Assembly: GCF_057098645.1 (NCBI RefSeq)
Contig: NZ_CM169472.1
Length of the DNA stretch: 64,000 nucleotides
Reading direction: 5' to 3' (one strand)
How positions within the stretch are numbered: position 1 is the first letter of the stretch; the number at the start of each line of letters is the position of its first letter. Under the pieces are notes generated by a model, which saw only the letters and a list, made by a program, of their open reading frames with translations, ran no database searches and had not been told where the DNA came from. Shown here piece after piece: positions 36,528 through 51,048 of this stretch. The position numbers and the translations under genes are program-made.

Positions 36528-36764
36528 TTAGCGCTTACCTTCCGCCAGCAGCGGCGGAATGCTCGGCACCATTGGCGCGTCATCAATATCTTTCTGCGTC
36601 ATGCGGAACGCTTCCGGGTAATGTTCGCGGCTGATGCGACGTAGCGGTTCGGTATCGCGCCAGGTATAAAGGCAATGCTGGCACTGATATACCGTCCAGA
36701 CATCTTTCACCGGCGATTTCGCCATCACTTCAATCTGTTCATCGGCACAACGTGGACAAATCAT
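36528..36764 (-). CDS. small subunit of non-oxidative aromatic-acid decarboxylase (BsdD/EcdD-like)
   Basis: 78-aa ORF with CPRC...CQHC cysteine pairs, immediately downstream of the UbiD-family gene. Confidence 0.75.
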   Translation of the reverse strand: MICPRCADEQIEVMAKSPVKDVWTVYQCQHCLYTWRDTEPLRRISREHYPEAFRMTQKDIDDAPMVPSIPPLLAEGKR

Positions 36765-36774
36765 CTTGTTCTCC

Positions 36775-38202
36775 TTATTTACGTACGGCCAGCATAGCGG
36801 TCAGTTTTTCAGCCCAGGCTTTGGTTTCCGGCAAATCCACCACCGGCTGGCTGTAGTGACCACGGTTGTCCGGGGCGACAGGCGTGGTGGCGTCGATAAT
36901 CAGCTTGTCGGTGATCCCCGCCGGGCTTGAGCCAGGGTCGAGTTCCAGCACGGACATATTCGGCAACTGCACCAAATCCCCTGCCGGATTTACTTTCGAG
37001 GAGAGCGCCCACATCACCTGCGGCAGGTTGAACGGGTCAACGTCTTCATCGACCATAATCACCATCTTTACGTAGCCCAGACCGTGCGGCGTGGTCATCG
37101 CACGCAGGCCCACCGCGCGGGCAAAGCCGCCGTAGCGTTTTTTGGTGGAGATAATCGCCAGCAGGCCGTGGGTGTACATGGCGTTTACCGCCTGCACTTC
37201 CGGGAACTCGGCTTTCAGTTGTTGATACAGCGGTACGCAGGTGGCTGGCCCCATCAGGTAGTCGATTTCGGTCCACGGCATGCCGAGGTACAGCGATTCG
37301 AAAATCGGCCTGGTGCGGTAAGAGACTTTATCGATGCGCACCACGGTCATGTTACGCCCGCCGGAGTAGTGTCCGGTAAACTCACCGAACGGCCCTTCGA
37401 TTTCGCGTTTACGGCTTTCGATGACCCCTTCGAGGATCACTTCTGAACCCCACGGCACATCAAAACCGGTCAGCGGGGCGGTGGCGATCGGGTACGGGCT
37501 TTCACGCAGCGCGCCTGCCATTTCATACTCAGACTGATCGTATTTCAGCGGCGTGGCCCCCATCAGCGTGATGATCGGATCGTTACCGAGCGTGATCGCA
37601 ATCGGCAGATCTTCACCGCGCTCTTCTGCTTTATGCAGATGCAGGGCGATATCGTGCATCGGTACCGGTTGCAGGCCAAGCTTACGCTTGCCCTTCACTT
37701 CCATGCGGTAGATGCCGACGTTCTGCTTGCCGAAGTTATCTGGGTCGAGCGGATCGCGGGAAACCACGCAGGCTTTGTCGAGATAGAAACCGCCATCGCC
37801 ATCATTTAAACGAAACAGCGGCAGGATATCGAACAGATTAATCTCGTCACCATCGACGGTGTTCTGCGCCCAGGCAGGATTGGCGCGGCGCTCCGGGACA
37901 ATCGGGAAGTTATCCCAGCGGCGGATAAACTCATCAATCTGTTTTTTAACCGGCGTGTTTGGCGGCAGGCCGAGGGAAATCGCGTGGTTCTGCCAGGAAC
38001 CGATGGTATTCATCGCCACGCGGGCATCGGTAAAGCCGCGAATATTATCAAACCACAGCGCGGGCGCGCCGTCGCCGATACGCCCGGTGGCGTTAGCTGC
38101 TGCTGCCAGATCCGGCTCAGCGTTCATTTCTTCGCTGATTTTCAGTAACTGGCCGTGGTCATCAAGCGCCTGTAAAAAGCTGCGTAAATCATCAAATGCC
38201 AT
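36775..38202 (-). CDS. UbiD-family (prFMN-dependent) decarboxylase, EcdC/BsdC-like
   Basis: 475-aa ORF with UbiD-family architecture; 1-nt overlap with the upstream UbiX-like gene. Confidence 0.88.
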   Translation of the reverse strand: MAFDDLRSFLQALDDHGQLLKISEEMNAEPDLAAAANATGRIGDGAPALWFDNIRGFTDARVAMNTIGSWQNHAISLGLPPNTPVKKQIDEFIRRWDNFPIVPERRANPAWAQNTVDGDEINLFDILPLFRLNDGDGGFYLDKACVVSRDPLDPDNFGKQNVGIYRMEVKGKRKLGLQPVPMHDIALHLHKAEERGEDLPIAITLGNDPIITLMGATPLKYDQSEYEMAGALRESPYPIATAPLTGFDVPWGSEVILEGVIESRKREIEGPFGEFTGHYSGGRNMTVVRIDKVSYRTRPIFESLYLGMPWTEIDYLMGPATCVPLYQQLKAEFPEVQAVNAMYTHGLLAIISTKKRYGGFARAVGLRAMTTPHGLGYVKMVIMVDEDVDPFNLPQVMWALSSKVNPAGDLVQLPNMSVLELDPGSSPAGITDKLIIDATTPVAPDNRGHYSQPVVDLPETKAWAEKLTAMLAVRK

Positions 38203-38795
38203 TATTCATTCTCCTGAGAAAAATTCCGGACCTGCGGCAATCCTTGCCAGCGCCTGGCGTGGGGATGTTCGAAGCCAAATTGATCCAGCACGCGGGCTAC
38301 CACATGGTGGACAATGTCATCTACCGTTTCGGGATGGTTATAAAAGGCAGGCATCGGCGGCACCATCGCCACGCCCATGCGTGAAAGTGCGAGCATATTT
38401 TCGAGATGGATGGTGCTAAGCGGCATTTCACGCGGCACCAGCACCAGTTTGCGGCCTTCTTTGAGCACGACGTCCGCCGCGCGCCCTACCAGGCCATCGG
38501 CGTAACCAGCGCGGATACCGGCGAGCGTTTTCATACTGCACGGAATAACGATCATGCCGTCGGTACGAAAGGAACCTGAGGAGATGGTCGCCGCCTGATC
38601 CGCCGGGTTATGGCTGAAGTCAGCGAGGGCAGCAACATCGCGGGCGCTGTAAGGCGTTTCCAGTTCAATGGTGGTTTTCGCCCACTTCGACATCACCAGA
38701 TGAGTCTCGACATTCGGCATCTCCCGCAGCGCTTGCAGTAATGCCACACCAAGAGGCGCACCGGTAGCCCCTGTCATCCCGACGATCAGTTTCAT
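38202..38795 (-). CDS. UbiX/Pad1-family flavin prenyltransferase, EcdB/BsdB-like
   Basis: 197-aa ORF; N-terminal MKLIVGMTGATGA flavoprotein motif. Confidence 0.88.
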   Translation of the reverse strand: MKLIVGMTGATGAPLGVALLQALREMPNVETHLVMSKWAKTTIELETPYSARDVAALADFSHNPADQAATISSGSFRTDGMIVIPCSMKTLAGIRAGYADGLVGRAADVVLKEGRKLVLVPREMPLSTIHLENMLALSRMGVAMVPPMPAFYNHPETVDDIVHHVVARVLDQFGFEHPHARRWQGLPQVRNFSQENE

Positions 38796-38812
38796 TGCTT
38801 ACTCTCTTAATT

Positions 38813-38826
38813 GTTCGTATACGAAC
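38813..38826. promoter_or_regulatory. perfect 14-bp palindrome GTTCGTATACGAAC, candidate operator
   Basis: Lies 18 nt upstream of the UbiX-like start codon in the divergent region shared with the MarR-type gene. Confidence 0.4.
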
Positions 38827-38908
38827 ATTATTATTAAAATACGCCTCTGTTCTCATTGCGGCAAGCACTGAAAAGTAACAACATCCCCTTCGTCACTGAA
38901 AAACCGCT

Positions 38909-39349
38909 ATGATAGCGGCAGATAGTTTGCCCGGAGTTTACATGGCGTTACGAAATAAAGCGTTCCATCAGTTACGACAGCTTTTTCAGCAGCACACGGC
39001 TCGCTGGCAGCACGAGTTACCTGACCTGACCAAACCACAGTATGCGGTGATGCGCGCCATTGCTGATAAGCCTGGTATCGAACAGGTGGCACTGATAGAA
39101 GCAGCAGTCAGCACCAAAGCAACGTTGGCAGAAATGTTGGCAAGAATGGAGAATCGTGGCTTAGTCAGACGTGAACATGATGCCGCTGACAAGCGGCGTC
39201 GCTTTGTCTGGCTGACTGCCGAAGGAGAAAAGATACTTGCTGCGGCGATACCGATTGGTGACAGCGTGGATGAGGAATTTTTGGGGCGTTTGAGTGCAGA
39301 AGAGCAGGAGCTGTTTGTGCAGCTGGTGCGCAAGATGATGAACACATAG
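38909..39349 (+). CDS. MarR/SlyA-family transcriptional regulator
   Basis: 146-aa ORF with winged-helix region; alternative start at Met-12 (38942) cannot be excluded. Confidence 0.85.
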   Translation: MIAADSLPGVYMALRNKAFHQLRQLFQQHTARWQHELPDLTKPQYAVMRAIADKPGIEQVALIEAAVSTKATLAEMLARMENRGLVRREHDAADKRRRFVWLTAEGEKILAAAIPIGDSVDEEFLGRLSAEEQELFVQLVRKMMNT

Positions 39350-39423
39350 GATGCAAATTGCCGGGTAGGACGCTGACGTGTCTTATCCAGGCGACAAAAA
39401 CACAAGCTTCCCAAACAAAAGAA

Positions 39424-39452
39424 AAAGGCCAGCCTCGCTTGAGACTGGCCTT
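39424..39452 (-). terminator. rho-independent terminator downstream of rpoS
   Basis: Minus strand: AGGCCAGTCTCAAGCGAGGCTGGCCT hairpin followed by TTTTCTTTTG. Confidence 0.6.
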
Positions 39453-39468
39453 TCTGACAGATGCTTAC

Positions 39469-40461
39469 TTATTCGCGGAACAGCGCTTCGATATTCAGCC
39501 CCTGCGTTTGCAGGATTTCGCGCAAACGGCGCAGGCCTTCAACCTGAATCTGGCGAACACGTTCACGGGTGAGGCCAATTTCACGACCTACATCTTCCAG
39601 TGTTGCCGCTTCGTACCCCAGCAAACCGAATCGACGTGCCAGCACTTCACGCTGTTTGGCGTTCAGCTCGAACAGCCATTTGACGATGCTCTGCTTCATA
39701 TCGTCATCTTGCGTGGTATCTTCCGGACCGTTCTCTTTTTCATCGGCCAGGATGTCCAGCAACGCTTTTTCGGAATCACCACCCAGCGGGGTGTCTACCG
39801 AGGTAATGCGCTCGTTAAGACGAAGCATACGGCTGACGTCATCAACTGGCTTATCCAGTTGCTCTGCGATCTCTTCCGCACTTGGTTCATGGTCCAGCTT
39901 ATGGGACAACTCACGTGCGGTTCGCAGGTAAACGTTCAGCTCCTTTACGATGTGAATCGGCAAACGAATAGTACGGGTTTGGTTCATAATCGCCCGTTCA
40001 ATCGTCTGGCGAATCCACCAGGTTGCGTATGTTGAGAAGCGGAAACCACGTTCCGGGTCAAACTTCTCTACCGCGCGGATCAGCCCCAGGTTGCCCTCTT
40101 CGATAAGGTCCAGCAACGCCAGACCACGATTGCCATAACGGCGGGCAATTTTTACCACCAGACGCAAGTTACTCTCGATCATCCGGCGGCGAGAGGCGAC
40201 ATCTCCACGCAGTGCGCGACGCGCAAAATAAACTTCTTCTTCGGCCGTTAACAGTGGTGAATAACCAATCTCACCAAGGTAAAGCTGAGTCGCGTCCAAC
40301 ACACGCTGTGTGGCTCCCTGCGATAACAGTTCCTCTTCGGCCAAATCGTTATCACTGGGTTCCTCTTCTACTAAGGCCTTTTCGTCAAAAACCTCAACTC
40401 CGTTCTCATCAAATTCCGCATCTTCATTTAAATCATGAACTTTCAGCGTATTCTGACTCAT
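39469..40461 (-). CDS. rpoS: RNA polymerase sigma factor RpoS (sigma-38)
   Basis: 330 aa from [21 protein letters not shown]; sigma-70 family regions 2-4. Track ORF includes 12 extra N-terminal codons. Confidence 0.95.
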
Positions 40462-50548: not shown

Positions 50549-50943
50549 GGGTGTTCTACCGCAGGGGCGGGGAATTCTAAGTGATATCCATCATCGCATC
50601 CAGTGCGCCCGGTTTATCCCCGCTGGCGCGGGGAACACTACCCAAAGCCATACGTTTTTGAGGGTTAAAACGGTTTATCCCCGCTGGCGCGGGGAACTCG
50701 AGACCTGCCATGAGGTGGATTTATCAGTCGGCGGTTTATCCCCGCTGACGCGGGGAACTCGATTTTTTCCGCTTCTGACAAATGGTTTTTATCGGTTTAT
50801 CCCCGCTGGCGCGGGGAACTCCCCGAACCCGGCAACATGCTCGCCGACCTGCGCGGTTTATCCCCGCTGGCGCGGGGAACTCTTGATGAAGCGGCGCGTG
50901 TTATAGCTGATGGCCGGTTTATCCCCGCTGGCGCGGGGAACTC
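50549..50943 (-). CRISPR. type I-E CRISPR array: 6 full 29-bp repeats, 6 x 32-bp spacers, plus a degenerate leader-distal repeat
   Basis: Plus-strand repeat CGGTTTATCCCCGCTGGCGCGGGGAACTC at 50610, 50671, 50732, 50793, 50854, 50915 (61-bp period); minus strand reads GAGTTCCCCGCGCCAGCGGGGATAAACCG. Spacers 50578-50609, 50639-50670, 50700-50731, 50761-50792, 50822-50853, 50883-50914. Degenerate repeat 50549-50577 (19/29). The + ORF 50658-50906 is a repeat artefact. Confidence 0.95.
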
Positions 50944-51048
50944 TCTAAAAGTATACATTTGTTCTTAAAGCATTTTTTCCCATAAAAACAACCCACCAAC
51001 CTTGATGTAACATTTCCTTATTATTAAAGATCAGCTAATTCTTTGTTT
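50944..51048 (-). promoter_or_regulatory. CRISPR leader (AT-rich, array promoter)
   Basis: ~105-bp AT-rich segment between cas2 stop and the first repeat; array transcribed on the minus strand away from cas2. Confidence 0.7.

Follow-up and report, generated by a model that had tools for sequence, protein, structure and literature searches.

Two palindromes mark the intergenic region between a gene for a MarR-family regulator and a divergently oriented decarboxylase operon in the stretch of DNA analyzed here (64,000 nucleotides; referred to in the following as the window). The explanation that we judge best, and to which we assign a probability of about 0.6, takes the first palindrome to be the operator of the repressor HosA and the second one to be the -10 element of the hosA promoter. 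Taken as a whole, this is an ordinary finding: the initial annotation, which had presented both palindromes as candidate operators, was right about the first site, albeit a site that is already known, and probably wrong about the second. The switch formed by HosA and 4-hydroxybenzoate and its 14-bp operator are already in use in in vitro biosensors, and the presence of the site in Escherichia coli O157:H7 only confirms knowledge at the level of annotation. The value of our analysis is a comparative one: the phylogenetic footprint delineates both predicted core promoters of the divergon, and it shows that the hosA start codon lies outside the second palindrome.

The hosA/decarboxylase locus

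The locus is situated in the polymorphic mutS-rpoS region of E. coli O157:H7, and a comparison over 351 bp showed no difference between the window and E. coli O157:H7 strain TR01. The genes follow each other in the order mutS, pphB, the decarboxylase genes for subunits D, C and B (minus strand), the MarR-family gene (plus strand), rpoS, nlpD and pcm. The regulatory gene is hosA, and the divergent operon is vdcBCD/ecdBCD, which encodes a non-oxidative hydroxyarylic acid decarboxylase whose three subunits (B, C and D) all exceed the curated NCBIfam cut-offs.

36528-36764, minus strand: decarboxylase subunit D (vdcD/ecdD); NCBIfam VdcD, 120.6 bits, cut-off 30
36775-38202, minus strand: decarboxylase subunit C (vdcC/ecdC), UbiD family; NCBIfam VdcC, 786.9 bits, cut-off 650
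38202-38795, minus strand: decarboxylase subunit B (vdcB/ecdB), UbiX-family flavin prenyltransferase; NCBIfam VdcB, 310.6 bits, cut-off 290; RefSeq
38802-38808, minus strand: Shine-Dalgarno-like AAGAGAG of the subunit B gene, read from the sequence; GAGG stands at the equivalent position in other genera
38942-39349, plus strand: hosA, MarR-family repressor of 135 amino acids; RefSeq, PDB match and NCBIfam MarR-type matches

The regulator matches 8aga and six more PDB entries entitled 'Transcriptional regulator HosA' over residues 1-135 with E = 2.7e-84, which secures its assignment. Between hosA and the subunit B gene lies an intergenic region of 146 bp (38796-38941). An Rfam scan of positions 38600-39600 found no RNA family in this region; it returned sub-threshold matches only, located at the terminator of rpoS and within the gene for subunit B. 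The sub-threshold ctRNA match among them is due to the rpoS terminator hairpin at 39422-39454. This hairpin, a strong one of about 15 bp that is followed by UUUUUCUUUU on the minus strand, stands just after the rpoS stop codon and between the convergent rpoS and hosA genes; since it folds on the plus strand as well, it may terminate both of them.

The hosA/decarboxylase locus is present in 2388 of the 5426 complete E. coli genomes. In E. coli Z226-7, the annotation gives a frameshift for the subunit B gene, and in E. coli AST215 the query match is confined to the interior of hosA (window positions 39013-39050), so that apparently only part of the locus is present there. Both states are consistent with the known polymorphism and decay of the mutS-rpoS region.

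Palindrome 1 and the HosA operator

38813-38826, no strand: palindrome 1, GTTCGTATACGAAC, in all likelihood the HosA operator (HosA box); identical to the published 14-bp site, half-sites preserved in 80 loci

We are close to certain that palindrome 1 is the HosA operator. It sits between hosA and the divergent vdcB/vdcC/vdcD operon, at 17 nt from the ATG of the subunit B gene, and its cognate regulator is encoded directly beside it. The description of GTTCGTATACGAAC as a perfect 14-bp palindrome holds exactly in the sequence, and so does its placement 18 nt upstream of the UbiX-like start, a figure that is obtained when one counts from the nearest base of the palindrome to the A of the ATG at 38795 and that leaves 17 nt in between. 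The symmetry even extends to 16 bp (TGTTCGTATACGAACA, 38812-38827). Within the window, palindrome 1 is the sole exact copy of GTTCG-N4-CGAAC, and copies with one mismatch occur at chance frequency.

In their biosensor study, Cao et al. (2018; Sci Adv, PMC6261655) employed a palindromic '14-bp TFBS of HosA', to which HosA of E. coli UMN026 binds in vitro, as assessed by EMSA and biolayer interferometry, and from which it is released by 4-hydroxybenzoate. The oligonucleotides of that study (PMC6261655) contain GTTCGTATACGAAC, and their native flanks match the locus described here. The machine-read version of the oligonucleotide table displays an extra T in the HosA site; this is a reading artefact since oligonucleotides E1 and E2 are complementary, the text gives 14 bp, and oligonucleotide T_H contains the exact 14-mer. 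For the HosA protein and its effector, Cao et al. (PMC6261655) refer to Roy and Ranjan (2016; Biochemistry 55:1120), who are also described as having identified the operator. A 2024 preprint summarizes this earlier work to the effect that HosA represses both the decarboxylase operon and itself, that 4-hydroxybenzoate induces the operon, and that the palindrome bound by HosA is situated downstream of the point where transcription of the operon begins, suggesting a steric block. A single palindromic HosA site is mentioned in these citing papers. The role of palindrome 1 as the HosA operator is thus already known, having been characterized in 2016; that HosA binding and its release by 4-hydroxybenzoate should carry over from the UMN026 allele to the present strain rests on sequence identity.

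The two alleles are indeed close. They share the 14-bp palindrome, near-identical native flanks, the arrangement of the genes and the regulator protein, whereas the base following the box is A in O157:H7 rather than the G of UMN026, whereby the perfect palindrome attains 16 bp, and a few further differences are found in the ribosome-binding region. These are allelic differences only. A broader likeness connects HosA with PcaV (PDB 4fht), which ranks among the closest solved relatives of the regulator after HosA itself (E = 3.3e-16), and with other MarR regulators responsive to hydroxybenzoate or protocatechuate: these proteins belong to the same family, their palindromic operator lies between divergent genes, and an aromatic acid ligand releases them from it. 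However, the operator sequence of PcaV differs, and its target pathway is one of ring cleavage and not of non-oxidative decarboxylation.

Conservation of palindrome 1 and the predicted promoter of the decarboxylase operon

Our set of orthologues was assembled by scanning one genome per species and comprises 80 hosA loci from Escherichia, Citrobacter, Salmonella, Klebsiella, Enterobacter, Kluyvera, Kosakonia, Leclercia and others, out to Rahnella. Each of the 80 loci contains a best match to palindrome 1 with at most two mismatches. All changes fall into the central four bases, with the exception of a C to T exchange of the last base in five Rahnella loci, and the consensus reads GTTCG-yryr-CGAAC. 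The conservation of the palindrome in orthologous loci, which had been proposed as a check, is therefore borne out from Escherichia to Rahnella by the preservation of the half-sites GTTCG/CGAAC in 80 of 80 loci. Together with the identity to the published HosA site, this preservation upholds the claim that palindrome 1 is an operator through which the divergent operon is repressed.

The distance between the box and the ATG of the subunit B gene amounts to 15-21 nt in most loci and to 24-36 nt in Entomohabitans and Rahnella. When the loci are compared with the box as the anchor, a common minus-strand layout emerges across the genera: TTGnCn, 17 nt, TAnnTT, 9 nt, and then the box. In the window, this layout corresponds to the following elements.

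38859-38864, minus strand: predicted -35 element of the decarboxylase operon, TTGCCG; suggested by TTGnCn at a fixed 17-nt spacing across genera
38836-38841, minus strand: predicted -10 element of the decarboxylase operon, TATTTT; suggested by its conservation

Transcription of the operon is predicted to start near position 38829, about 3 nt before the box, which would place the operator at approximately +4 to +17. This predicted start agrees with the position downstream of the transcription start that the preprint gives for the published site. A promoter proposed by a consensus scan, ATGAGA-18-AATAAT (38856-38827), was set aside because it has less support from conservation than TTGCCG-17-TATTTT. 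It would place the transcription start inside the operator, and both promoters put the operator at the start region. A HosA dimer would accordingly be expected to bind GTTCG-N4-CGAAC at, or just after, the transcription start of the operon and thereby to block RNA polymerase. 4-Hydroxybenzoate, a substrate of the pathway that the operon controls, would bind to HosA and release it, and the operon would be induced.

A second site resembling the HosA box, mostly GTTCGyryrCGATC, is found upstream of hosA in 35 of 73 orthologous loci, its carriers being Klebsiella, Enterobacter, Kluyvera, Leclercia, Lelliottia, Pseudocitrobacter and others. It keeps a fixed distance of 56-57 bp from the first box and, in the loci that were read, stands 3-4 nt upstream of the operon -35 element. 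Escherichia, Citrobacter, Salmonella and Rahnella are without this second box, and the equivalent position in the window (about 38869-38882) is taken by the unrelated TGAAAAGTAACAAC. The second box may be relevant to the stringency with which different genera repress the operon and hosA itself.

Loci from Cedecea, Superficieibacter, some Rahnella and a Pluralibacter MAG gave no match to subunit B within the upstream DNA covered, which measured up to 3 kb; the region concerned lies about 150-220 nt upstream of hosA. Both the HosA box and the TATGAT core are retained in these loci. In three of them that were inspected (L067, L073 and L083), the divergent gene is an ORF of 475-476 amino acids, and that of L073 is 95% identical to subunit C of the window.

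The start codon of hosA

38933-38936, plus strand: Shine-Dalgarno sequence GGAG of hosA, read from the sequence; a conserved block in an alignment of 74 sequences

Palindrome 2 (38904-38918) had initially been described as overlapping the start codon of the MarR gene, a description that we have to correct. RefSeq places the start of hosA at 38942, which corresponds to residue 1 of the crystallized HosA protein, and all tblastn matches in other genera begin at this same residue 1 of the 135-residue HosA. The GGAG motif is located 5 nt upstream of the ATG at 38942. The ATG at 38909, inside palindrome 2, is in frame with hosA and without a ribosome-binding site; it merely opens the longest ORF, and an ATG at the equivalent position is found in only 29 of 71 orthologous loci. 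In view of the RefSeq start, the first residue in the PDB and this sporadic occurrence of the ATG, we rejected the idea that the 146-residue ORF beginning at 38909 is the real hosA gene. Since hosA starts at 38942 and not at 38909, palindrome 2 ends 23 nt upstream of the start codon.

Conservation of palindrome 2

38904-38918, no strand: palindrome 2, CCGCTATGATAGCGG; only the core GCTAT[G/C]ATAG is conserved across genera

As had been stated, CCGCTATGATAGCGG is a palindrome with perfect 7-bp arms around a central G. At least 982 of the 2388 E. coli genomes possessing the locus show it in this exact context. Across six divergent E. coli alleles, its right arm reads GCGG, GCGA or GCCA. We tested its symmetry on 70 distinct orthologous sequences that were anchored on the core. 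All seven arm pairs are kept in only two of the 70 orthologues, and the three outer pairs are complementary in 32, 15 and 9 of them, which is no more than the composition of the columns predicts. The G at 38906 is invariant (70/70), yet its palindromic partner is complementary to it in just 9 of the 70 sequences. Hence, the check on conservation turned out negative for palindrome 2: its outer arms are not kept in the orthologues (9/70 at the third pair). Conservation at this site is asymmetric, being strong to the left of the TATGAT hexamer and decaying rightward, with A at 38914 in 63 and G at 38915 in 55 of the 70 sequences just downstream of it. The central base of the core (38911) is G in 30 and C in 36 sequences, that is, G or C in 66 of 70; A and T are rare there, and a plain -10 element would not require G or C.

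No likeness exists between palindrome 2 and the HosA half-sites GTTCG/CGAAC. Apart from palindrome 1, the intergenic region holds no HosA box at up to one mismatch, and no second HosA box was found in the Escherichia loci at up to two mismatches. Consequently, we do not uphold the proposal that palindrome 2 is a candidate operator: it is unlike the HosA box, it does not touch the start codon, its dyad is not maintained, and the part of it that is conserved resembles a -10 element.

Palindrome 2 as a predicted -10 element of hosA

38908-38913, plus strand: predicted -10 element of the hosA promoter, TATGAT, with the invariant G at -14 (38906); suggested by comparative sequence analysis

The hexamer TATGAT agrees with TATAAT in five of six positions, including the A at position 2 and the T at position 6, and 71 of 73 orthologous loci have a TA[T/A]NAT hexamer at the equivalent position. 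In most loci TAT[G/C]AT precedes the hosA ATG by 27-31 nt. It stands exactly 17 nt downstream of TTAAAA (32 sequences) or TTATAA (8 sequences) in 40 of 72 sequences, with TTGTTC in five, and the sequence of the 17-nt spacer varies freely. The equivalent position in Rahnella is occupied by TTGCTAAAAT, an extended -10 element in which the palindrome is broken. Because TAT[G/C]AT, the TTAAAA-like hexamer at 17 nt and the distance of 27-31 nt to the ATG form the pattern of a sigma-70 promoter, we incline, with some reserve, to the view that palindrome 2 is the -10 element of hosA. The hosA transcript would then start near position 38920 and possess a leader of about 22 nt that carries the GGAG ribosome-binding site, and the extension of palindrome 2 to 7-bp arms would be a lineage-specific accident with incidental symmetry. 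Our search of the literature for transcription starts of hosA or of the locus yielded nothing usable.

This assignment meets with a difficulty in Escherichia, the window included, where CCCCTT or CTTCTT, a poor -35 element, stands 17 nt upstream of TATGAT because about 25 nt found in the other genera are missing. A hosA promoter at this position would consequently be weak or atypical here. A second objection stems from the center of the core, where the preponderance of G or C over the consensus A is what a symmetric protein site, tolerant of a G/C swap, would display. Furthermore, the reported autorepression by HosA is hard to explain with a promoter that lies about 100 bp away from the single known operator, and a competing hosA promoter overlapping palindrome 1 (38811-38840) has to be reckoned with.

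In a different layout, hosA would be transcribed from a distal promoter overlapping palindrome 1. Both genes would then be governed by the same operator, and the hosA leader, about 95 nt long, would contain palindrome 2 as a small hairpin. Candidate elements can be read from the sequence (-35 TTGTTC at 38811-38816, 18 nt, -10 TAAAAT at 38835-38840), with equivalents in other genera (TTGTTC ... TAAACT), and the arrangement would trace the reported autorepression to the one operator that is known. On the plus strand, the folding energy of palindrome 2 is -7.9 kcal/mol. Yet no independent weight attaches to the conservation of the two hexamers, which overlap with the HosA box and with the complement of the operon -10 element and are conserved for that reason anyway. 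The plus-strand hairpin, with z = -1.9, is a weak one whose stem lacks conservation, and the TTAAAA-17-TATSAT arrangement beside hosA would be left unexplained. We therefore regard a distal hosA promoter as rather improbable.

Autoregulatory operators of the SlyA/MarR type overlap the promoter of the regulator's own gene, examples being marO for MarR and the SlyA site TTAGCAAGCTAA, and an overlap with the regulator's own -10 element is a classic position for a MarR autoregulatory site. Palindrome 2 is likewise short and overlaps the predicted -10 element of a MarR-family gene. It might hence be a second operator over the hosA -10 element, bound weakly by HosA for autorepression or by another dimeric regulator that recognizes CTAT-S-ATAG. 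The reported autorepression by HosA fits such a site, and so do the conserved inner CTAT/ATAG, the symmetric behavior of the G/C center, and the conservation of A 38914 and G 38915 beyond the hexamer. Unlike the SlyA/MarR-type operators, however, palindrome 2 is unrelated to the cognate box of its regulator, and its dyad symmetry is not conserved. It does not resemble GTTCG-N4-CGAAC, of which palindrome 1 is the only box in the Escherichia intergenic regions; its outer arms are complementary at chance level only, with asymmetric conservation; and the CTAT/ATAG symmetry largely follows from the TATnAT hexamer itself. One palindromic site is what the papers citing Roy and Ranjan describe. We consider a second operator unlikely on these grounds, even if it deserves to be kept in mind. 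A more elaborate form of this idea, in which CTAT-[G/C]-ATAG would be a real second operator over the hosA -10 element (for non-canonical HosA autorepression or another regulator), and in which Escherichia would have extended the dyad to 7-bp arms as a compensation for the lost second canonical box of Klebsiella, Enterobacter and Kluyvera, strikes us as distinctly improbable.

A further reading takes palindrome 2 to be a weak intrinsic terminator, or an insulator, on the minus strand that would keep antisense transcription running across hosA from extending into the promoter of the decarboxylase operon. A consensus scan flags GCCGCTATCATAGCGGT followed by TTTTTCAG on this strand, and the hairpin reaches -9.1 kcal/mol, but this value lacks significance (z = -1.8), being equalled or surpassed by 13 of 200 shuffles. 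Moreover, the stem and the T-run are absent outside of Escherichia, and rpoS, the sole upstream gene on the minus strand, has its own strong terminator at about 39422-39454. Given the weak and non-significant fold, the missing conservation and the presence of the rpoS terminator, we rejected this reading, which we hold to be very improbable.

Palindromes expected by chance and other repeats in the window

About one perfect palindrome of 16 bp is expected per 64 kb, and four were observed in the window. Palindromes with 7-bp arms are expected about four times per spacer class, and 5-15 were observed; palindrome 2 taken by itself is therefore unremarkable on the scale of the genome. Dinucleotide shuffles of the 146-bp intergenic region contained at least one palindrome with 7-bp arms and a spacer of 0-4 nt in 3.8% of the cases, two of them in 0.7%, and a palindrome with 8-bp arms in 0.2%. 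Membership of either palindrome in a repeat family was rejected since no extra copies above chance are present in the window.

The palindrome count also revealed, as a periodic series, a CRISPR array at about 50609-50950 that consists of six type I-E-like repeats (CGGTTTATCCCCGCTGGCGCGGGGAACTC) with a period of 61 bp; Tandem Repeats Finder returned nothing for this array, as is expected for interspaced repeats. Three more perfect palindromes are found elsewhere in the window, namely CTGGCCATTAATGGCCAG (54714-54731) and TCCCTACTTAAGTAGGGA (56965-56982), each of 18 bp, and AAGAAACGCGTTTCTT (60094-60109), which comprises 16 bp.
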